Assembly (NCBI RefSeq): GCF_048403405.1
Contig: NZ_CP183129.1
DNA from: Escherichia coli
GTDB lineage: Bacteria; Pseudomonadota; Gammaproteobacteria; Enterobacterales; Enterobacteriaceae
Reading direction: 5' to 3' (one strand)
DNA length: 64,000 nucleotides
Within the stretch, counting starts at the first letter, position 1. Each line of letters opens with the position of its first letter. A program made the position numbers and the translations under genes. Positions 19 through 54,590 of this stretch are shown here, piece after piece. The notes below the pieces were generated by a model, which did not search any database, was not told where the DNA came from, and saw only the letters and a list, made by a program, of their open reading frames with translations.

Positions 19-1107
19 TCAACCACCTGCTTTCATTACCCATTCAGAGATAAATTTATTACCCGGTACTGGCGGAGAGTACAAATAGCCCTGCAAAAAG
101 TGAACGCCTTTGCCGATCATTAAATCCGCCTGCTCCTGGGTTTCTACCCCTTCCGCCACGATACTCAGACCAGGCTTACGCGCCAGTTCGACAATATTGT
201 CCACAATATGACCGGATATTTCGTCCACGCTCGCCATTTGCACAAATGACTTATCGATCTTAATAAAATCGACCGGGAACGCCTGCAAGTAACGATAGGT
301 CGCATAACCCGTACCAAAGTCATCCAGCGCAAAGGTAATGTTGTGCTGATGAAGGCTGTCAAATATCGCTCTGGCTTCTGGCGTTACCGGAATAGGGTTA
401 CGTTCCGTTAGCTCGAGAACCAGTTTGATTTTATCGTTTCCTAATTTCTTGACCAGGTTCAGGCATTCTTTTTCAAATCCCGCGGCCAAAAAACAACCCG
501 CCGAGACGTTGATGCCAATATGGAAATTATCCGGCAGCAAATGTTTTACCGGCATCAGAATATCCGCAGTCTGTTTCATCAACTGGCGAGTCATTATGAC
601 GATAAGACCAGATGACTCCGCCAGAGGAATAAACTGATCCGGTGGGATAATTCCCGTTTGTGGATGTTCCCAGCGGACAAGCACCTCACAGCCCGTCAGT
701 ACCCCAGTCTGCGCGCAGAAAACCGGTTGGATCCACGGTTTAAATTCATGGTTTTCCAACGCCAGACTGATGGCTTCAGGCGTGACGATATGGTGATAGT
801 GATTATCATTAATATATTTGTGACTATTATTACCCGTGGCGGATATGATCTCCGGATTGTACTGAAAGAAAATATCCCGCCAGAAAGTAATATCGCTCTG
901 AATCCCCAGTTTCTCAAAGAGCTGTTTCTTTTGATGTGAAATGGTCTTTGCACTGCGATTTCTGTACTGTGATATTTCTGTTACAGACATTCCCTGCATC
1001 AGCAGCTTGAGTAGCAGTCGTTCTTTCTCGGATACGCTACCAGGCAATGACAAATGAACCGTTGTACCGAACTCTTGCAGAAAAACACGAAAATCACATG
1101 AATTCAT
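19..1107 (-). CDS. pdeL: c-di-GMP phosphodiesterase PdeL (LuxR-type HTH plus EAL domain)
   Basis: ORF 19..1113; translation recognised as YahA/PdeL; start placed at ATG 1107 (MNSCDF...) with AGGTG RBS upstream; track start 1113 is GTG. Confidence 0.85.
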   Translation of the reverse strand: MNSCDFRVFLQEFGTTVHLSLPGSVSEKERLLLKLLMQGMSVTEISQYRNRSAKTISHQKKQLFEKLGIQSDITFWRDIFFQYNPEIISATGNNSHKYINDNHYHHIVTPEAISLALENHEFKPWIQPVFCAQTGVLTGCEVLVRWEHPQTGIIPPDQFIPLAESSGLIVIMTRQLMKQTADILMPVKHLLPDNFHIGINVSAGCFLAAGFEKECLNLVKKLGNDKIKLVLELTERNPIPVTPEARAIFDSLHQHNITFALDDFGTGYATYRYLQAFPVDFIKIDKSFVQMASVDEISGHIVDNIVELARKPGLSIVAEGVETQEQADLMIGKGVHFLQGYLYSPPVPGNKFISEWVMKAGG

Positions 1108-1939
1108 GAACACACCTTTTATCTTTTATCGCTGTTCAGTATGAGTGATTACCTGTGGATTCCTGAGCACACATAAGGGGTAACCATAAACATCAGCGAT
1201 GCCATACGCATAACATCCCACATCACTATCAAAAAGATTATCTTTACCTCTGATGCTCGCTCAAAAACAGTTACGCTAAATACCTTAAAAAGGTAATCAC
1301 AAGTCAAACTCAGGAGATAATCACGCAAGAATGCAATATTAAAATTCAGATACTCATTTTTGGTAATAAAGAAGTAGTTGGACTATTTCAATATTTATAA
1401 TTTCCCACTACGTATTGACGCCCATTCATGAGTAAAGGCGCATTATATGAATTTAACAATCCAGATCAACTGAAAATACCTCAACCTCATAAACACATAG
1501 CGTCAACATTCAATGACATAATGAGTAAAGATGTTGGTTATGCATACACGTCATTACTCTATGCCTATCCCTTAACAACCTGCTTTTTAAGGCTGAATCC
1601 ATTCAGCAATAGATAACCAACATTATAACAATGACAATAAAAACAATATTTAAAACAATCAATAAAATATCAGACACAGACAATTAAACCTTAAACAACA
1701 AACAGTTACATTGATTTTAGTTGATTTGCGCTACGCGTTTCCCATGAATAAAGCGTCATTTCAAATTAGCACCAATATTTACATTAAATAAGACTAAGCT
1801 TATTGAACATTCACAACAGTCCAAGCGTAGGTTTTGGGCTTCAATAGTTCTTTTCTTTTTTATTATCTGTTGCCTGGCAATCATCAATCGATACTAAGGG
1901 CTTAACTGTACACAGATATAACGTATCAAGAGGTAAGAG

Positions 1940-1972
1940 AAACCGCGCCATATGCAGACATGGCGCGGTTTT
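1940..1972. terminator. GC-rich hairpin AAACCGCGCCAT/ATGGCGCGGTTT followed by TTTT, just downstream of betT stop
   Basis: Perfect 12-bp inverted repeat with 8-nt loop read directly; U-tract is on the + strand side, so function for minus-strand betT is uncertain. Confidence 0.35.
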
Positions 1973-1984
1973 ATGCAATAACAA

Positions 1985-4018
1985 TCACGCGTCCGGGAAC
2001 ATCACGCTATGGCCCGGCGCTTCACGATGGAGATGGATAAAGTTAAGGTGTCGCTCGTACTGGTCGAGAATATCGGTGATCACCTGCTCTTTGCTGTAGT
2101 CCATCAGGTCGTTGCCCTGGCTGCCTTCTAACAGGAAGGTTTCCAGCCGGTAGTAGGTCGATTTCCCGCTACGTGCGCGGTAGGTAAAGCCCGGCACCGA
2201 ATATTGCTGCGGCCAAATCTGATAGACAAAGTTTTGCTCTTCGCCCATATGCACCAACAAATCCAGATGCCCCAACTGTTGCCCCTCTTCCGGCGGCAGG
2301 CTTTTTAGCTCCACGTACGCGCCGCGCAACCGCAGCTCCTGCGCCACTTCTTCCATTGCCGGGTAACAGACCGTCTCCATCATCTGTTTAGTGTAACGCG
2401 TGCCCGGATAATTCATCAGGCGCGAGAGACGTTTTTTCCAGCTCAGGCGATCCTGAAGCCCCAGCGGTCGCGGCGCGGTATCACGGTTGGCACTTTCACG
2501 GCGGTAATCTTCTACCTTCAGAGATTTATACAACCCCGCCATCACGAAGAAAATCACAAAGCTGAACGGCAGCCCCATGATTACCGTGGTGTTTTGCAGC
2601 GCGGATATCCCGTTGGTCATCAGCATGCCGAGCGTCAGCAGGCCAATCGCCACCGACCAGAAGACGCGCAGCCAGCCGGGGGCGTCGCTGTTGATATCTT
2701 TAAGCTGCGAGGTGAAATTCCCCAGCACCAGCGCCCCGGAGTCCGCCGAGGTCACATAAAACAGCAGGCCAGTAATGGTGGCGACGGAGGCGCTAAAGGT
2801 AAACGCCGGATACTGCGCCAGCAGGCTGTAGAAGCCGCGCTCCGGATGGACCATCGCTTCCTCGGCAAATGCCGCGCCGCCGTGGATGATTTCATACAGC
2901 GCGCTATTGCCGAACACCGAGAGCCATAACAGCGTGAAGGTAAACGGAATAATCAACGTGCCCAGCACGAACTGGCGAATGGTACGCCCGCGCGAGATAC
3001 GCGCCAGAAACAGGCCGACAAACGGCGACCATGCCACCCACCATGCCCAGAAGAAGAGCGTCCAGTTATTCATCCACTCAACCGGACGGTCGAAGGCAAA
3101 ACTGTTGAGCGTCATGCCCATAAAGCGATTCACATAGTCGCCAACGTTCAGCACCAGCGCATTAAGCAGGAACGAGGTGTCACCCATAAACAGCACGAAA
3201 AGGATCAATCCCAGCGCCAGCGCAACGTTAAGTTCCGATAACACACGAATGCCCTTATCGACACCGGAGGTGACAGAGATCGTGGCGATGATCACCGACA
3301 AGGCGATCAGTGCCGCTTTCGCCGCCATTGAATCGGGAATATCAAACAGTACGCTCAAGCCATAGTTAAGCTGCACCACACCGATACCGAGCGTAGTGGC
3401 AATACCGAAGATGGTGCCGATTACCGCTGCAATATCCACTGAATGACCAATCGGCCCGTTAATCCGTTTACCGAAGATCGGGTACAGCGCCGAGCGGATG
3501 GTGAGCGGCAAATTATAACGATAGCTAAAGTATCCGAGCGCCATGCCCATCAGCGCATACATCGACCAGCCGGTTAAGCCGTAGTGAAACAGCGTCCAGA
3601 CCATCGCCTGACGCGCGGCCTCAATCGTCTGACCCGCGCCTTCCGGCGGCTGCATATACTGCGTTACCGGTTCGGCTACGGAGAAGAACATCAGGTCGAT
3701 ACCGATCCCGGCAGCAAACAGCATCGCCGCCCAGCTCAGCAGGCTGAATTCCGGTTTGGATTGTTCTGGCCCGAGCTTCACCGAACCAAAACGCGAACAA
3801 GCAATACAGACCACAAAGACAATATAGAGCGTTGCCGCCAGCAGATAGTACCAACCGAAGGTTTTAGAAACCCAGTCCAGCGTGCGGCCAATCCACAGGG
3901 CCGAGAAGTCGCGAAACAGGATCGTTGTCAGGGAAAACAACAAAATCAGTCCGGCGGAAGTGTAAAACACCACCGGATTGATTTTGTCCTTTTCCCTGCT
4001 GTGTGAAAGGTCTGTCAT
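1985..4018 (-). CDS. betT: choline transporter BetT (BCCT family)
   Basis: 677-aa ORF, N-terminus MTDLSHSREKDKINPVVFYTSAGL matches BetT; divergent from betIBA. Confidence 0.92.
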   Translation of the reverse strand: MTDLSHSREKDKINPVVFYTSAGLILLFSLTTILFRDFSALWIGRTLDWVSKTFGWYYLLAATLYIVFVVCIACSRFGSVKLGPEQSKPEFSLLSWAAMLFAAGIGIDLMFFSVAEPVTQYMQPPEGAGQTIEAARQAMVWTLFHYGLTGWSMYALMGMALGYFSYRYNLPLTIRSALYPIFGKRINGPIGHSVDIAAVIGTIFGIATTLGIGVVQLNYGLSVLFDIPDSMAAKAALIALSVIIATISVTSGVDKGIRVLSELNVALALGLILFVLFMGDTSFLLNALVLNVGDYVNRFMGMTLNSFAFDRPVEWMNNWTLFFWAWWVAWSPFVGLFLARISRGRTIRQFVLGTLIIPFTFTLLWLSVFGNSALYEIIHGGAAFAEEAMVHPERGFYSLLAQYPAFTFSASVATITGLLFYVTSADSGALVLGNFTSQLKDINSDAPGWLRVFWSVAIGLLTLGMLMTNGISALQNTTVIMGLPFSFVIFFVMAGLYKSLKVEDYRRESANRDTAPRPLGLQDRLSWKKRLSRLMNYPGTRYTKQMMETVCYPAMEEVAQELRLRGAYVELKSLPPEEGQQLGHLDLLVHMGEEQNFVYQIWPQQYSVPGFTYRARSGKSTYYRLETFLLEGSQGNDLMDYSKEQVITDILDQYERHLNFIHLHREAPGHSVMFPDA

Positions 4019-4146
4019 CCAGTATCCCCACTGTTATTGTTACCATTTAAAATCAAATTCGTAACAATTAAGACACATTTTATATTGAACGTCCAATCAA
4101 TAACCGCTTTAATAGATAAACAACGCTGATGAATGGAGTGGCGAAA
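4019..4146. promoter_or_regulatory. divergent betT / betIBA control region with candidate BetI operator
   Basis: 128-bp intergenic region; near-palindrome ATTGAACGTCCAAT at 4084-4097 and inverted repeat ATTGTTAC...GTAACAAT at 4034-4068; TetR-family repressors bind palindromes between divergent promoters. Confidence 0.45.
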
Positions 4147-4734
4147 ATGCCCAAATTGGGGATGCAGTCGATCCGGCGCAGACAACTGATCGACGCCACG
4201 CTGGAAGCAATAAATGAAGTGGGCATGCACGATGCAACGATCGCGCAGATCGCCCGCCGTGCAGGCGTTTCTACGGGGATCATCAGCCACTATTTCAGGG
4301 ACAAAAATGGTCTGTTGGAAGCAACCATGCGCGATATCACCAGTCAGCTGCGTGACGCGGTTTTGAATCGATTACATGCACTTCCGCAGGGCAGTGCAGA
4401 GCAGCGATTACAGGCGATTGTTGACGGGAATTTCGATGAATCGCAGGTCAGTAATGCTGCGATGAAAGCCTGGTTGGCGTTTTGGGCCAGCAGTATGCAT
4501 CAGCCGATGCTTTACCGTTTGCAGCAGGTGAGCAGCCGCCGCTTGTTGTCGAATCTGGTGAGCGAATTTCACCGCGAGTTACCGCGCCAACAGGCACAGG
4601 AAGCGGGCTACGGCCTTGCCGCGCTGATTGACGGATTATGGCTGCGCGCGGCACTGAGCGGCAAACCGCTGGATAAACCTCTCGCACACTCGCTGACCCG
4701 TCACTTTATTACTCAGCATTTACCCACCGATTAA
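4147..4734 (+). CDS. betI: TetR-family repressor BetI
   Basis: ORF 4129..4734; start at ATG 4147 ([16 protein letters not shown]...) gives 195 aa. Confidence 0.9.
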
Positions 4735-4747
4735 CCGAGGAGACGTG

Positions 4748-6220
4748 ATGTCCCGAATGGCAGAACAGCAGCTTTATATACATGGTGGTTATACCTCCGC
4801 CACCAGCGGTCGCACCTTCGAGACCATTAACCCGGCCAACGGTAACGTGCTGGCGACCGTGCAGGCCGCCGGGCGTGAGGATGTCGATCGCGCCGTGAAG
4901 AGTGCCCAACAGGGGCAAAAAATCTGGGCGGCGATGACCGCTATGGAACGCTCGCGTATTCTGCATCGAGCCGTTGATATTCTGCGTGAACGCAATGACG
5001 AACTCGCAAAACTGGAAACCCTCGACACCGGAAAAGCGTATTCGGAAACCTCAACCGTCGATATCGTTACCGGCGCGGACGTGCTCGAGTACTACGCCGG
5101 GCTGATCCCGTCGCTGGAAGGCAGCCAGATCCCATTGCGTGAGACGTCATTTGTCTATACCCGCCGCGAACCGCTGGGCGTAGTGGCAGGGGTTGGCGCA
5201 TGGAACTACCCGATCCAGATTGCCCTGTGGAAATCCGCCCCGGCGCTGGCGGCAGGCAATGCAATGATGTTCAAACCGAGTGAAGTCACCCCGCTTACCG
5301 CGTTAAAGCTGGCTGAAATTTACAGCGAAGCGGGCCTGCCGGACGGCGTATTTAACGTGCTGCCGGGCGTAGGTGCGGAAACCGGGCAGTATCTGACCGA
5401 GCATCCGGGCATTGCCAAAGTGTCATTTACCGGCGGTGTCGCCAGCGGCAAAAAAGTGATGGCTAACTCGGCGGCTTCCTCCCTGAAAGAAGTGACCATG
5501 GAGCTGGGCGGTAAATCACCGCTGATCGTTTTCGACGATGCGGATCTCGATCTCGCCGCTGATATCGCCATGATGGCGAACTTCTTCAGCTCCGGTCAGG
5601 TGTGTACCAACGGCACCCGCGTGTTTATTCCGGCGAAATGCAAAGCCGCATTTGAACAAAAGATTCTGGCTCGCGTTGAGCGCATTCGCGCGGGCGACGT
5701 TTTCGATCCGCAAACTAACTTTGGCCCGCTGGTCAGCTTCCCGCATCGCGATAACGTGCTGCGTTACATCGCCAAAGGCAAAGAGGAAGGCGCGCGCGTA
5801 CTGTGCGGCGGCGATGTACTGAAAGGCGATGGCTTCGATAACGGCGCATGGGTTGCACCGACCGTGTTCACCGATTGCCGCGACGAAATGACCATCGTGC
5901 GCGAAGAGATCTTCGGTCCGGTGATGTCGCTTCTCACTTATGAATCTGAGGACGAAGTGATTCGCCGCGCCAATGATACCGACTACGGCCTGGCGGCGGG
6001 CATCGTGACGGCGGACCTGAACCGCGCGCATCGCGTCATTCATCAGCTGGAAGCGGGTATTTGCTGGATCAACACCTGGGGCGAATCCCCTGCTGAGATG
6101 CCCGTTGGCGGCTACAAACACTCCGGCATTGGTCGCGAGAACGGCGTGATGACGCTCCAGAGTTACACCCAGGTGAAGTCCATCCAGGTTGAGATGGCTA
6201 AATTCCAGTCCATATTCTAA
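4748..6220 (+). CDS. betB: betaine aldehyde dehydrogenase BetB
   Basis: ORF 4745(GTG)..6220; ATG 4748 preceded by GAGGAG; aldehyde dehydrogenase family sequence, [16 protein letters not shown]-terminus. Confidence 0.92.
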
Positions 6221-6233
6221 CCAGGAGGTTTAT

Positions 6234-7922
6234 TTGCAATTTGACTACATCATTATTGGTGCCGGCTCAGCCGGCAACGTTCTCGCTACCCGTCTGACTG
6301 AAGATCCGAACACAACCGTGCTGCTGCTTGAAGCAGGCGGCCCGGACTATCGCTTTGACTTCCGCACCCAGATGCCCGCCGCGCTGGCGTTCCCGTTACA
6401 GGGTAAACGCTATAACTGGGCCTATGAGACGGAACCGGAACCGTTTATGAACAACCGTCGCATGGAGTGCGGACGCGGTAAGGGGCTTGGCGGGTCATCA
6501 CTGATCAACGGCATGTGTTACATCCGTGGTAACGCGCTGGATCTCGACAACTGGGCGCAAGAACCTGGCCTGGAGAACTGGAGTTATCTCGACTGCCTGC
6601 CCTACTACCGCAAGGCCGAGACTCGCGACGTGGGCGAGAACGACTACCACGGCGGTGATGGCCCGGTGAGCGTCACCACCTCCAAACCCGGCGTCAATCC
6701 GCTGTTTGAAGCGATGATTGAAGCGGGCGTGCAGGCGGGCTACCCGCGCACGGACGATCTCAACGGCTATCAGCAGGAAGGTTTTGGCCCGATGGATCGC
6801 ACCGTCACGCCGCATGGCCGTCGCGCCAGCACCGCGCGTGGCTATCTCGATCAGGCCAAATCGCGCCCTAACCTGACCATTCGAACTCACGCCATGACCG
6901 ATCACATCATTTTTGACGGCAAACGCGCGGTGGGCGTCGAGTGGCTGGAAGGCGACAGCACCATTCCGACCCGCGCGGCGGCGAATAAAGAGGTGCTGTT
7001 ATGTGCAGGCGCGATTGCCTCACCGCAGATCCTGCAACGTTCCGGCGTGGGTAGCGCTGAACTGCTGGCGGAGTTTGATATTCCGCTAGTGCATGATTTA
7101 CCCGGCGTCGGCGAAAATCTTCAGGATCACCTGGAGATGTATCTGCAATATGAGTGCAAAGAACCGGTTTCCCTCTACCCTGCCCTGCAGTGGTGGAATC
7201 AGCCGAAAATCGGTGCGGAGTGGCTGTTTGGCGGCACCGGCGTTGGTGCCAGCAACCACTTTGAAGCAGGCGGATTTATTCGCAGCCGTGAGGAATTTAC
7301 GTGGCCGAATATTCAGTACCATTTCCTGCCAGTGGCGATTAACTATAACGGCTCGAACGCAGTGAAAGAGCACGGCTTCCAGTGCCACGTCGGATCGATG
7401 CGCTCGCCAAGCCGTGGGCATGTGCGGATTAAATCCCGCGACCCGCACCAGCATCCGGGAATTCTGTTTAACTACATGTCGCACGAGCAGGACTGGCAGG
7501 AGTTCCGCGACGCAATTCGCATCACCCGGGAGATCATGCATCAACCGGCGCTGGATCAGTATCGTGGCCGCGAAATCAGCCCCGGTGTCGAATGCCAGAC
7601 GGATGAGCAGCTCGATGAGTTCGTGCGTAACCACGCCGAAACCGCCTTCCACCCGTGCGGTACCTGCAAAATGGGTTATGACGAGATGGCAGTGGTTGAC
7701 GCCGAAGGCCGCGTACACGGGCTGGAAGGCCTGCGCGTGGTGGATGCGTCAATTATGCCGCAGATTATCACCGGCAATTTGAACGCCACGACGATTATGA
7801 TTGGCGAGAAAATGGCGGATATGATTCGCGGGAAGGATGCGTTGCCGAGGAGCACGGCGGGATATTATGTGGCAAATGGGATGCCGGTGAGAGCGAAAAA
7901 AATGAGTCGTGATTTGAACTGA
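6234..7922 (+). CDS. betA: choline dehydrogenase BetA (GMC oxidoreductase)
   Basis: N-terminal FAD motif [14 protein letters not shown]; apparent TTG start at 6234 with AGGAGG 5 nt upstream; track ORF starts at TTG 6189 inside betB. Confidence 0.85.
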
Positions 7923-8115
7923 CTCAGGAACCTATCAGATTGAGAGTTACCGTTCTACTATGAGGACCGAATCCTTATATAAAACACTGAGGTAACTCTC
8001 ATGCTTCATATCCAGTATTCATGATGCTGGTTTTTTGCTGATATTTAACCCGAACACTCCTGATACAGCCTATTAATTCATTTATCTGCGGCAGATTTTA
8101 TTTTCTGGATATATT

Positions 8116-8784
8116 ATGAGTGAACAAATCAAACAGGATATCGATCTGATTGAGATTTTATTTTATCTGAAGAAAAAGATTCGTATTATCCTTTTTATTA
8201 TAACTATCTGTATGGCAATGGTGCTGTTGTTTCTGTATATCAATAAAGATAATATAAAAGTGAGTTACAGCCTAAAAATAAACCAGACAACACCAGGCAT
8301 ACTTGTTAGCTGTGATAGCAATAATAACTTTGCCTGTCAGACCACAATGACTGAAGATGTTATTCAGCGAATTACTACATTTTTTCAGACCAGCCCAGAT
8401 GTCAAGAACAGAGAAATAAAGCTGGAATGGTCAGGAGATAAGAGAGATTTACCAACTGCTGAAGCGGAAATATCTCGCGTGCAGGCGTCTATTATCAAAT
8501 GGTATGCGTCAGAATATCATAATGGCAGGCAAGTTCTCGATGAGATACAAACACCTTCAGCAATTAACAGTGAGCTTTATACAAAAATGATATACCTGAC
8601 CAGGAACTGGTCATTGTATCCGAACGGTGATGGCTGTGTAACTATAAGCTCACCAGAAATAAAAAATAAATACCCTGATGCCATTTGCCTGGCTCTGGGA
8701 TTTTTTATAAGCATTGTAATTTCTGTAATGTTTTGCCTTGTCAAAAAAATGGTAGATGGATACCAACAAAACTCTGGGCAGTAA
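8116..8784 (+). CDS. ykgH: predicted inner-membrane protein, YkgH-like
   Basis: 222-aa ORF with one N-terminal and one C-terminal hydrophobic segment; position between betA and ykgG matches ykgH. Confidence 0.6.
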   Translation: MSEQIKQDIDLIEILFYLKKKIRIILFIITICMAMVLLFLYINKDNIKVSYSLKINQTTPGILVSCDSNNNFACQTTMTEDVIQRITTFFQTSPDVKNREIKLEWSGDKRDLPTAEAEISRVQASIIKWYASEYHNGRQVLDEIQTPSAINSELYTKMIYLTRNWSLYPNGDGCVTISSPEIKNKYPDAICLALGFFISIVISVMFCLVKKMVDGYQQNSGQ

Positions 8785-8854
8785 TAAACAGCATTCTGAC
8801 AGAGAGTGCCTGTATAAAACTATAGTAACAATGACCGGGAAGGGAGCCCGTCTT

Positions 8855-8878
8855 CAGGAATGGATTCCTGTCTTTTTC
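8855..8878 (+). terminator. putative intrinsic terminator after ykgH
   Basis: Hairpin CAGGAATGGATTCCTG followed by TCTTTTT, 70 nt after the ykgH stop. Confidence 0.4.
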
Positions 8879-9026
8879 ACTGTAAATATCCTGGCATTAT
8901 TAATGTCAGGATATTTACAGAAGAGCAGCATAACCATGACGGAACGGGGTTAAGTCAGGTTGTCCTTAACGCTATTCACAACCTCGTATGCCGCCTTCAG
9001 GTTTATGTCCAGACTTCATATCTCTC

Positions 9027-14805: not shown

Positions 14806-14913
14806 ACTCAAAATCAGACGCCAGAACAAATATTCTGGCGTCTCAGAGAAAAGAATCTTATTAATTCTCTGTTACTCTATAACTTCTTAATCACTTCATT
14901 GATGGTATTTTAT

Positions 14914-15755: not shown

Positions 15756-15914
15756 TAATCCGAACACTGTCTGTTGTTCACTTTTTCAGGCGTCAGGCCC
15801 CCTTTCTGATGATGAAGCCTGACGCCATATTACCGGAGATATGACAGAGTGAAGATCAATATCACTCCCCTGTTAAAAGATCCTTGTCGTCTCAGGTAAA
15901 ATACATGATTAATA

Positions 15915-16799
15915 TCAATCATGTATTTTTACAGCAAGACAACCACGAACAAATTCAGGATTAAAATGTTTTACCGACTCCCCAACATAACCCAAATCAA
16001 GCGAACTAATTTGTGCCATTTCTTTCTCTGTCAGTGAGAAATCCCAGATAGCAAAATTTTCTTCGATACGCTGTTGATGTGTCGATTTCGGAATAACGAC
16101 CACTCCCCGTTGAATATTCCAACGCAGAATGACTTGAGAAATCGATTTTTGATGGGCATCTGCAATACTCTGAAGCAGATTATTTTCAAAGGGTTTATGT
16201 CGTCCACCACCTAACGGAGCCCATGCTTCAGGCTGCACGTTATAATACTTCATGGTTGCCAGCGCCTCTGGTTGGGCAAAATAGGGATGCAACTCGACCT
16301 GGTTGACCATCGGTTTAACTCTTACCGTTTCACAAAAGTTCGCCAGAACATGAGGATAGAAATTGGAAACCCCAATTGCTTTTAATTTGCCCTCTTCATA
16401 GGCATCTTCGAGTGCACGCCACGCACTGAAATAATCGCGCATAGCCTGGTGCAATAAATAGAGGTCGAAGTATTCTAGTCCCGATTTTTTTAATGATGCT
16501 TCAATACCTGCTTTTGCCGTATCCTGATTCAACATATCCTGCACCCACAATTTAGACGTTATAAATAACTCATCTCGGGTACATAAACCTTCAGATATGG
16601 CTTCACGAACGGCTTCACCGACGGCATCTTCATTACCGTATACCGCTGCAGTGTCGATGAGTCGATAACCCGTGCGGATAGCATTCAACACTGACTGTTT
16701 GCACACGTCTTTATCGGTAACCTGAAAAACACCAAATCCCATCATCGGCATTTTCAGATTGTTACTTAATACGTAAAATTCCACTGTCAGTCCCTCCAT
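15915..16799 (-). CDS. aldo-keto reductase (DkgA/YvgN-like)
   Basis: 294-aa ORF with AKR motifs ([24 protein letters not shown]); paralogous to ORF 22828..23679; a GTG start 15 nt downstream is possible. Confidence 0.75.
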   Translation of the reverse strand: MEGLTVEFYVLSNNLKMPMMGFGVFQVTDKDVCKQSVLNAIRTGYRLIDTAAVYGNEDAVGEAVREAISEGLCTRDELFITSKLWVQDMLNQDTAKAGIEASLKKSGLEYFDLYLLHQAMRDYFSAWRALEDAYEEGKLKAIGVSNFYPHVLANFCETVRVKPMVNQVELHPYFAQPEALATMKYYNVQPEAWAPLGGGRHKPFENNLLQSIADAHQKSISQVILRWNIQRGVVVIPKSTHQQRIEENFAIWDFSLTEKEMAQISSLDLGYVGESVKHFNPEFVRGCLAVKIHD

Positions 16800-17889: not shown

Positions 17890-17946
17890 CTGTAGCGATG
17901 TTTACATGAATTTATAACGAGACTACTGTCAGGCAATTCAATAAAT

Positions 17947-17980
17947 AATGGCGTTGAAGATGTCAACGCCATTATTGTTT
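17947..17980. terminator. bidirectional intrinsic terminator between ykgA and fdeC
   Basis: Perfect hairpin AATGGCGTTGA-agatg-TCAACGCCATT flanked by A-rich (upstream) and T-rich (downstream) tracts, between convergent genes. Confidence 0.55.
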
Positions 17981-22263: not shown

Positions 22264-22812
22264 TGAGATAATTTCCTGATGAACGAATTAACGAACATAG
22301 GCAGACACAAATAGTGGCGTCTGCTTGTCAGAAAAACCGGGAAATCCCCGATTTCCTTTTCCGCAGAAAAGGAAATACCTTTATGTAAGAAAGTACACCG
22401 CCACCTAATATATCCAGTGTCTGTAGCCACTCATCAGGTGGTTGGGCGCGGGATTATATTTTTATTTATGGGTAAAAATTTAGCTTTTTGTGCAAGTTAT
22501 TAAATAGATACCTAAGTTATATTTTTACTCTGCGGACAGTGAATAATTCATTATTCAGAGTGAATAATAATGGCCTGCCTTTAATTAACAACTATTGGAA
22601 ATACGTCGAAGTAGGTATATACGCCAGGATAAACCGATATATTTTTTATGGATATTCATTTTCCTTTATCGGACTGTAAATTGCGGGGATATCGAACTTG
22701 CACTACTCATCGCAACACTCAAACAGATTTATGAATTTCGTTCATAACCCCTGACAAATCCTGCCGTCTAATCGAGCTCTTCTCTTTACGTTATGCTTCT
22801 CATGAACGATAA

Positions 22813-36034: not shown

Positions 36035-37667
36035 CCTACTGATAGCGATGATAATCGTTGCGCTAATCTGGCCTGCAACCGCGCTCAGAGCGGCAGTGAG
36101 CAAAACAACCTGGGCGGATGCACCGGCACGCGAGTTTGTGTTTGTCGAAAACAACTCAGACGACAACTTTTTCGTCACTCCTGGCGGGGCGCTGGATCCG
36201 CGCCTGACCGGTGCCAACCGCTGGACCGGTTTAAAATACAATGGTTCAGGAACCATCTATCAGCAAAGTCTCGGCTACATTGATAACGGTTACAACACCG
36301 GCCTTTATACCAACTGGAAGTTTGATATGTGGCTGGAAAATTCACCAGTTTCATCTCCTTTAACTGGCTTGCGCTGCATCAACTGGTACGCAGGGTGTAA
36401 TATGACCACCAGTCTTATCCTGCCGCAAACCACCGACGCCAGTGGATTTTATGGCGCGACGGTGACCAGCGGCGGCGCGAAGTGGATGCACGGCATGTTG
36501 TCAGACGCGTTTTACCAGTATCTGCAACAAATGCCCGTCGGCAGCAGCTTTACAATGACCATCAATGCCTGCCAGACCTCTGTGAACTATGACGCCAGTA
36601 GCGGCGCACGCTGTAAGGATCAGGCCTCCGGCAACTGGTATGTTCGCAACGTCACCCATACGAAAGCAGCAAATCTGCGGTTGATAAATACCCACTCGCT
36701 GGCGGAAGTATTTATCAACAGCGACGGAGTACCGACTCTGGGCGAAGGGAACGCCGACTGCCGGACGCAAACCATCGGCAGCCGTTCAGGATTAAGTTGT
36801 AAGATGGTTAACTATACCCTGCAAACAAACGGACTCAGCAACACCTCAATCCATATATTCCCGGCGATCGCCAACTCGTCGTTAGCCTCGGCCGTCGGGG
36901 CGTACGATATGCAGTTCAGTCTGAATGGCAGTTCATGGAAACCGGTGAGCAATACTGCCTATTACTACACCTTCAACGAGATGAAGAGCGCAGACTCGAT
37001 CTATGTTTTCTTCTCGAGCAACTTCTTTAAACAGATGGTGAACCTCGGGATCAGCGATATCAACACCAAAGATCTATTCAACTTTCGCTTTCAGAACACC
37101 ACATCACCGGAGTCTGGCTGGTATGAATTTTCTACCTCCAACACGCTGATTATCAAACCCCGTGATTTCAGCATCAGTATTATCTCCGATGAATATACTC
37201 AGACACCGTCGCGGGAGGGATATGTCGGCAGCGGCGAGTCGGCACTCGATTTCGGCTATATCGTAACCACCAGCGGTAAAACAGCTGCCGACGAAGTGCT
37301 GATCAAGGTGACCGGACCCGCGCAGGTGATTGGCGGGCGCTCCTATTGTGTCTTCAGCTCCGATGACGGTAAGGCGAAAGTACCGTTCCCGGCGACGCTT
37401 TCCTTTATTACCCGCAACGGAGCTACAAAAACCTACGATGCCGGGTGCGATGATAGCTGGCGGGATATGACCGATGCGCTGTGGCTGACCACACCGTGGA
37501 CTGATATCTCTGGCGAAGTGGGGCAGATGGATAAGACCACAGTCAAATTTTCGATTCCAATGGATAACGCCATTTCGCTGCGTACGGTAGATGATAACGG
37601 CTGGTTTGGCGAAGTCAGCGCTTCAGGAGAAATTCATGTTCAGGCGACGTGGCGTAACATTAACTAA
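36024..37667 (+). CDS. ecpD: pilus tip adhesin EcpD (MatE)
   Basis: 547-aa ORF with signal peptide [23 protein letters not shown]; overlaps ecpC stop. Confidence 0.85.
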
Positions 37668-39045: not shown

Positions 39046-39194
39046 AGGGATAACAAAACCCGAAACTTCTTCCATCTGCCAGCAACAATGCCTCTTCCTC
39101 TATAGTGTTCTCCGGATCTACAGCATCCTGAAGTAGCGCGATGTACTCACGGGCTATCTGCTTCAGAAAGTAAAAAGCAATGTTTTTAACCTAT

Positions 39195-39226
39195 AAAAAT
39201 GGCGCTGCATTTGCGCCATTTTTATT
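39195..39226. terminator. bidirectional terminator downstream of yagU
   Basis: AAAAAT-GGCGC-tgcatttg-GCGCC-ATTTTTATT; A-tract and T-tract flank a GC stem, 10 bp from the yagU stop. Confidence 0.55.
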
Positions 39227-54376: not shown

Positions 54377-54564
54377 GATTCTCTGCCATTCAATTTTAGG
54401 AAAAATGATATCAAACGAACGTTTTAGCAGGACTGTCGTCGGTTGCCAACCATCTGCGAGCAAAGCATGGTGTTTTGTTGCGCGGGATCAGCAAGCGTAG
54501 CGGCAGTTGTTTACGCTTTTATTACAGATTTAATAAATTACCACATTTTAAGAATATTATTAAT

Positions 54565-54590
54565 CTGTAATATATCTTTAACAATCTCAG
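54565..54590 (+). promoter_or_regulatory. Pho box (PhoB site) in the phoE promoter
   Basis: CTGTAATATATCTTTAACAATCTCAG about 75 bp upstream of the phoE start; resembles tandem CTGTCATA-type PhoB half-sites. Confidence 0.5.

Follow-up and report, generated by a model that had tools for sequence, protein, structure and literature searches.

A stem-loop directly after betA in Escherichia coli is probably the fossil of an IS481-family transposase leader hairpin

Just after the betA stop codon in the Escherichia coli DNA analyzed here (a window of 64,000 nucleotides), an inverted repeat occurs at a heavily studied locus, and it raises the question of what it is, where it came from, and whether it has a function at present. 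A first-pass annotation had described two 11-bp arms about 39 nt apart after the stop codon, and had suggested an RNA stabilizing structure or a protein site. This interpretation is partly supported by the analysis described below, but it missed an IS481-family origin. We consider it likely that the segment at 7902–8010 is a decayed and truncated left end of an IS481-family insertion sequence (IS) located at the very end of betA, and that the hairpin in it is the fossil of a structure that would have sequestered the ribosome-binding site to repress translation. The homology, the truncation, the geometry relative to the Shine-Dalgarno sequence and AUG, and the covariation are directly supported.

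The repeat search confirms the arms at 7941–7951 (TGAGAGTTACC) and 7991–8001 (GGTAACTCTCA). They are 11 nt long, 100% complementary, and spaced by 39 nt, and the left arm begins 18 nt 3′ of the betA stop codon (7920–7922) on the sense strand. The bare arm pair is not significant against chance, since perfect 11-nt inverted repeats with loops of 60 nt or less occur at a mean of 0.74 per dinucleotide-shuffled window and 48% of the shuffles have at least one. The fold of the whole segment should be noted. The 61 nt from 7941 to 8001 form a single rod (−23.2 kcal/mol, z = −5.5) that none of 200 shuffles equals, and it is this fold, together with the IS-end homology and the family-wide covariation, that makes the repeat non-random. 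The hairpin is also stable in K-12 (−19.6 kcal/mol) and O157 (−21.0 kcal/mol).

The 39-nt spacer, described earlier as a long loop, is not a loop, because the whole 61 nt folds as one rod-like hairpin. The spacer pairs internally (7952–7954 with 7983–7985, 7956–7957 with 7980–7981, and 7959–7966 with 7972–7979) and leaves an apical loop of only 5 nt, CCGAA. The middle helix is decayed, with GUU at 7952–7954 pairing with AAC at 7983–7985. The 3′ internal loop of the rod contains the GA of a Shine-Dalgarno remnant (GAGG, 7989–7992), and the 3′ arm extends from the GG of this remnant to the A of the former transposase ATG. The combination of a GC-rich stem, a short loop, and a U-tract that characterizes intrinsic terminators is not found here: a T-run is absent 3′ of the right arm (TGCTTCATATCC), the arm being followed by UGCUUCAUAUCC, and the terminator scan skips 7941–8001. 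The first-pass annotation was thus right that this is not a typical intrinsic terminator, and a genuine RNA-type stem-loop is indeed located in the betA 3′ UTR. A cmscan search of 7000–9000 against Rfam with E values up to 10 gives nothing overlapping 7900–8040. The coordinates of the features are collected in Table 1; those of betA were mapped from CP007394 (strain ST2747), which is 100% identical to the window over the tested stretch.

Table 1. Features around the betA 3′ end, in window coordinates
Feature	Position	Strand	Basis or remark
betA (choline dehydrogenase, 562-aa form)	6234–7922	+	RefSeq annotation of identical record CP007394
Probable decayed IS481-family left end	7902–8010	+	blastn and alignments; truncated between 8010 and 8011
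Degenerate left terminal inverted repeat (IRL)	7902–7924	+	aligns to TGTATTAGTCGCGACTTGATCTGACA of intact copies
Outer helix, 5′ arm	7941–7951	+	TGAGAGTTACC; repeat search, comparison with homologues
Rod interior	7952–7990	+	folds; comparison with intact rods
Outer helix, 3′ arm	7991–8001	+	GGTAACTCTCA; same geometry in all intact copies
Residual ORF MLHIQYS*	8001–8024	+	translation
Apparent deletion junction	8010–8011	.	strain comparison; position of PAI-X in O157/APEC
Weak terminator-like hairpin and T6	8012–8036	+	terminator scan (8012–8030 and T6); fold
ykgH homologue	8116–8784	+	annotation

The first clue to the origin came from a search with 7935–8010 against 5,426 complete E. coli genomes at sensitive settings, in which a few of the matches lay under genes annotated as "IS481 family transposase". 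The segment occurs at a median of 2 places per genome, the second being ylbG, and at a maximum of 9–10, and many dispersed copies per genome, as for REP/BIME elements, are not seen. An intact IS is present in E. coli ET245 (CP100978, 865257–866457; locus L006, 2963–4163). It is 1,201 bp long and has one ORF for a DDE transposase of 346 aa, 26-bp terminal inverted repeats beginning with TGT (2963–2988 and 4138–4163), and a flanking GATAAAG direct repeat. When this IS was compared with the 64-kb window by blastn, the sole match was 79% identical over 110 nt (E = 2.7e-19), with IS positions 4–112 corresponding to window positions 7902–8010. An intact IS encoding a transposase with a score of 282.8 bits in the NCBIfam IS481 model (NF033577; cut-off, 224 bits) has a left end that matches the 74 nt surrounding the repeat.

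The state of the segment indicates how much of the element is left. The IRL is recognizable in the window, though its first bases have diverged (AAAATGAG versus TGTATTAG), and the right end is deleted. The CTTGAAA and GTTTTGAT blocks conserved in the IS subgroup are destroyed (CCTATCAGA and GTTCTAC, respectively). The transposase ORF is reduced to three codons (ATGCTTCAT = MLH, 8001–8009), the remainder of the residual ORF lying beyond the deletion junction, and tblastn with the transposase gives no match at the locus; intact transposases begin with MLH or MHH. Because the transposase ORF is missing, the segment is filed as a relic and not as an IS. The intact homologue resembles members of the IS481 family (ISfinder; NF033577) in its single DDE transposase ORF, TGT-starting inverted repeats, and length of about 1.2 kb, whereas the window keeps about 110 bp with a degenerate terminus and is incapable of transposition. 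In strain FDAARGOS_1289 (L092), the relic match ends at query position 35 (window position ~7969), about 55 bp before an annotated IS1 transposase gene; the hairpin there appears to be interrupted by an IS1 insertion.

The final six codons of betA, together with its stop codon, fall within the IRL. An A7 run leads to the 562-aa BetA in the window, APEC, and O157 (7896–7922), while an A6 run in K-12-type strains leads to a BetA of 556 aa that ends with ...RAKK* and is six residues shorter. Since this additional coding stretch and the stop codon are both part of the degenerate IRL, the six-residue C-terminal extension of BetA and its stop codon appear to derive from the insertion-sequence end.

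The truncation at 8010 can be followed in other strains. Many genomes match the relic only to window position 8009 or 8010. In O157 and APEC, a PAI-X island of about 5 kb (ipbA/fimX, hyxR, hyxA, and an adhesin fragment) and more of the IS relic are located exactly between 8010 and 8011 (L002, L003, and L096 ~233–5177). After ...ATGCTTCATA, the decayed IS goes on in these strains to IS positions of up to ~165–275 before PAI-X begins, and this extra part shows a weak tblastn match to transposase residues 45–89. On the other side of the island, O157 matches the window again from precisely position 8011, and both junctions share ATA. Since relic sequence extends into PAI-X, the window and K-12, which lack the island, are best read as microhomology-mediated deletion derivatives and not as primitively island-free. 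A GC-rich palindrome (CCTGCAGGCAGCAGTATGCTGCCTGCAGG) is also found just inside the right junction of the O157 PAI-X (L096 ~5125–5175).

Several other hairpins lie nearby. The weak hairpin at 8012–8036 (CCAGTATTCATGATGCTGG and T6; −8.2 kcal/mol, z = −1.5) is outside the IS relic and belongs to the ykgH-side flank; in island-bearing strains it is found at the ykgH side, at the far end of PAI-X, and not after betA. Its K-12 version is degenerate (−4.2 kcal/mol), and in strain 10_253 a U-to-C change strengthens it slightly. A further perfect inverted repeat, with 14-nt arms (CTGTAAATATCCTG and CAGGATATTTACAG) and a 13-nt loop, is located at 8880–8920, where ykgH and ykgG converge, and is probably a bidirectional terminator. 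The Rfam scan mentioned above gives spurious miRNA and lncRNA matches at 8564–8920 only, and the miRNA matches are attributable to this repeat. Throughout the window, perfect inverted repeats of at least 11 nt with short loops are found at ten loci (the shuffled expectation is 0.74 arm pairs per window). In addition to 7941–8001 and 8880–8920, they are 1940–1971, 14816–14843, 15898–15929, 17944–17976, 22351–22376, 36680–36719, 39193–39225, and 54520–54572, most of which look like terminator stems.

The geometry of the hairpin in intact relatives is related to its original role. In the 5′ UTR of the ET245 IS, the same two 11-nt arms are 39 nt apart, the last nucleotide of the right arm being the A of the transposase ATG. 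Intact transposase genes are carried by only 77 of the 5,426 E. coli genomes, and a transposase scan of 100,044 species genomes found 80 loci at 70–93% amino-acid identity, originating from Enterobacterales, Acinetobacter, Alteromonadales (Alteromonas), Nitrosomonas, Pasteurellaceae, and others. The same hairpin is present in intact relatives from about 40 genera. Nearly all the 80 loci have the arrangement GAGAGTTACC ... GGTAACTCTC with the right arm abutting the ATG, and in about 70 intact copies the right arm begins at the Shine-Dalgarno GG and abuts or overlaps the ATG.

The arms covary among these relatives. In a gap-free, anchor-based alignment of the arms from 26 distinct sequences, six of the 12 pairs of the outer helix show compensatory double changes and 92.9% of the cells are paired. 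The covariation score is 0.186, compared with a shuffled mean of 0.075; none of 500 shuffles reaches this value, and controls with slid arms give 0.077 at most. The anchor-based arms replaced MAFFT alignments because MAFFT mis-registered the right arms of Acinetobacter. Compensatory arm variants include GAGCGTTACC/GGTAACGCTC, GAGGGTTACC/GGTAACCCTC, GAGAGTTTCC/GGAAACTCTC, GAGCGTTTCC/GGAAACGCTC, GAGAAAGTTACC/GGTAACTTTCT, and GAAGAAGTTACC/GGTAACTTCTC, and RNAalifold recovers the outer helix independently. For the whole rod, consisting of the outer, middle (GUUUUGAU/AUCAAAAC), and apical helices, double changes are found in 14 of 24 pairs, 87.7% of the cells are paired, and the score of 0.140 (shuffled mean, 0.079) is again reached by none of 500 shuffles; a model-derived alignment was used here, with the middle helix outside the model. 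A first assignment of the inner helix, with 72% pairing, was superseded by this three-helix rod.

Every family member folds as a single rod with −20 to −35 kcal/mol. Several G·U pairs are found on the plus strand, suggesting that an RNA of the sense strand fits better than a palindrome in duplex DNA. In a Vibrio copy (L079), the outer helix is preserved although the interior is missing entirely, suggesting that the part covering the ribosome-binding site is the part that matters.

A covariance model was built from 37 intact copies of other genera with no E. coli sequence. In the window, it gives a single match at 7926–8009 on the plus strand (51.1 bits, E = 5.8e-10), while the minus strand scores 16 bits; intact copies score 65–100 bits. 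A small ORF on the minus strand (8010 to 7948, 20 codons) was also considered and set aside, given the minus-strand score and the lack of any conserved counterpart in the intact copies. A literature search on the IS481 family and ylbG found nothing on this hairpin.

The second place in the genome, ylbG, provides a less decayed example. In K-12 MG1655, ylbG (L088 1501–2023) is a dead, internally deleted copy of the same IS481 subgroup that is 85% identical to the ET245 IS and was inserted in the same orientation, 14 nt beyond the stop codon of mnmH. Its hairpin is intact with perfect arms and scores 94.6 bits with the covariance model. It keeps about 520 bp and an undamaged leader, whereas the betA relic keeps about 110 bp, with a degraded leader interior and CTTGAAA block. 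Both E. coli relics are immediately 3′ of a gene on the same strand, two cases being too few to claim a target preference.

From this geometry, the rod-like hairpin of about 60 nt would be part of the 5′ UTR of the transposase mRNA in this IS481 subgroup. In intact elements, the 3′ strand of the helix covers the Shine-Dalgarno GG, the spacer, and the A of AUG, and the 5′ strand is supplied by the subterminal region of the left end. Such pairing is predicted to hide the ribosome-binding site, block 30S binding, and keep transposase translation low. By analogy with IS10, IS50, and IS200, the repression may act especially on transcripts reading in from outside.

The 5′ half of the rod probably has another role in intact elements. 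Its sequence (GTTACC-N-GTTTT ... GGTGTC) is repeated in inverted orientation beside the right terminal repeat, whereas the 3′ half is found at the left end only. This inverted recurrence suggests that the 5′ half is also a subterminal sequence to which the transposase probably binds, and the 3′ half may have evolved toward complementarity with it. The left-arm core GTTACC is accordingly a subterminal repeat at the DNA level as well, so part of its conservation among intact ISs is not driven by RNA.

Other features of the intact ends were observed. Just upstream of the 5′ arm, a small hairpin surrounds a near-invariant CTTGAAA (L006 2989–3004; equivalents in L008–L086, alignment columns ~35–48). 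Its outer pairs appear by eye to covary (CCTT..AAGG, TCTT..AAGA, ACTT..AAGT, CACTT..AAGTG, and ATTT..AAAT). This block of about 20 nt is found at the left end only, as an insertion relative to the right inverted repeat, and has not survived in the window relic; a −35 element, a protein site, and an RNA hairpin are all conceivable. Promoter scans found no sigma-70 consensus promoter at three intact left ends. A promoter consisting of TTGAAA and TTTGAT, with the 5′ arm as its 17-nt spacer, was not adopted because the −11 A is missing from TTTGAT. An inverted repeat is also present at the right end of the IS, CTGACAG...CTGTCAG, of about 25 nt and 76% complementary (L006 4097–4153 and the right ends of other loci), extending over both the transposase stop codon and the inner portion of the right terminal repeat.

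The putative leader hairpin resembles known systems to different degrees. A stem-loop in the 5′ UTR of IS200 tnpA was reportedly described by Beuzon et al. in 1999. This stem-loop blocks 30S binding in experiments (Ellis, Trussler & Haniford 2015, PMC4513863). The likeness lies in an inverted repeat of about 60–70 nt in the left end of the IS, within the transposase leader, with a sequestered Shine-Dalgarno sequence and very low translation, and on this analogy the hairpin of the IS481 subgroup would lower transposase translation. However, IS200 belongs to the HUH/Y1 group (IS200/IS605) and has no relationship to the DDE IS481 family. The terminator hairpin located upstream in IS200 and its antisense sRNA, art200, were not found here. 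The betA hairpin has no sequence similarity to the IS200 structure and no match in Rfam.

For IS10 and IS50, "protection from outside activation" is said to have been described by Davis, Simons and Kleckner in 1985 and by Krebs and Reznikoff in 1986. In these elements, a sequence near the terminus pairs with the translation-initiation region of the transposase, and the 5′ arm here is likewise in the subterminal inverted-repeat region. For IS10 and IS50, pairing is confined to read-through transcripts, since transcription from the native promoter starts downstream of the 5′ partner, whereas constitutive attenuation is equally possible in the IS481 subgroup. With terminators and REP-type 3′ stabilizers, the betA hairpin shares a stable sense-strand stem-loop in a 3′ UTR, but it differs from them in having no U-tract, in not being multi-copy, and in its IS-leader origin.

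Since the transposase gene is gone and the conserved blocks are destroyed, the hairpin in the window is probably a fossil, and any transcription of it would now be within the betA 3′ UTR. The distribution of variation should be noted in this regard. Among nine E. coli sequences representing three haplotypes, 19 of the 108 relic columns vary, all of them among the 86 outside the arms, and none of the 22 arm positions does (post hoc one-sided Fisher p = 0.008). This invariance is a weak hint of constraint, which weakens the reading of the hairpin as a fossil without function. The arms are thus invariant in E. coli and covary in homologues, so the conservation or compensation that the first-pass annotation had asked for is found.

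Such constraint would be explained if the fossil hairpin were maintained as a 3′ stem-loop of the betIBA mRNA that blocks 3′-to-5′ exonucleases or defines the 3′ end. This possibility is compatible with the IS origin, but we regard it as unlikely. It agrees with the sense-strand position of the hairpin, 18 nt beyond the stop codon of betA, with its stability in the window, K-12, and O157, and with the fact that island-bearing strains have no other terminator-like hairpin directly after betA. The interior of the window haplotype has drifted and yet makes a new 8-bp apical helix. Nevertheless, the Fisher test is post hoc, and the invariant blocks (7938–7955 and 7991–8009) extend past the arms, with 8 of their nucleotides taking no part in pairing. 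Quasi-palindrome template-switch repair could also keep the arms complementary without selection. The ylbG relic likewise has perfect arms, and no compensatory change is seen within E. coli. The K-12 Term-seq table has no 3′ end between betA and ykgH, in media where the bet operon is poorly expressed, and the same supplement has no entry for ylbG or mnmH (eLife 2021, PMC7815308 supplement). The fuller form of this explanation, in which the transposase-leader hairpin has been domesticated and its arms are kept across E. coli by purifying selection for a stem-loop that protects or delimits the betIBA mRNA at its 3′ end, is likewise unlikely.

An element acting at the level of DNA is far less probable. 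The two arms would then either make up a palindromic site for a protein or delimit a small segment capable of inversion, and the perfect 11-bp palindromic pair, the tyrosine invertase gene IpbA/FimX about 1 kb away in island-bearing strains, and the left-arm core GTTACC recurring with GTTTT and GGTGTC in inverted orientation beside the right IS end could be taken in this sense. However, no allele matching a query with the 39-nt spacer inverted is found in any of the 5,426 complete genomes; the top match over the full length (89.3% identical) is in the ordinary orientation. The known Fim-type switches are far longer than 39 bp, fimS being 314 bp. The arms change in a compensatory manner across the IS family, where a fixed protein site should be conserved; the G·U pairs are limited to one strand, the start codon is adjacent to the right arm in every case, and intact transposase genes are present in just 77 of the 5,426 genomes. 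The protein site suggested earlier therefore has little support. A chance inverted repeat with neither history nor function, conceivable from the arm pair itself as about half of the shuffled windows contain one, is effectively refuted by the IS-end homology (E = 2.7e-19), the covariance-model match (E = 5.8e-10), and the fold (z = −5.5).

The preferred reading, a fossil leader hairpin in an IS481-family relic of an ordinary kind, explains an unannotated conserved structure at a heavily studied E. coli locus. Its main value lies in annotation and evolutionary history, and it leaves the view of how such systems work unchanged. If the domestication considered above were true, the translational brake of a selfish element would have been turned into a host mRNA stabilizer for the osmoprotection operon betIBA. 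The hairpin common to this widespread IS481 subgroup shows strong covariation, is absent from Rfam, and could be added there as a cis-regulatory family. As a corollary, this hairpin family, widespread in Gammaproteobacteria and Betaproteobacteria, would be an undescribed IS481-type cis-regulatory RNA.
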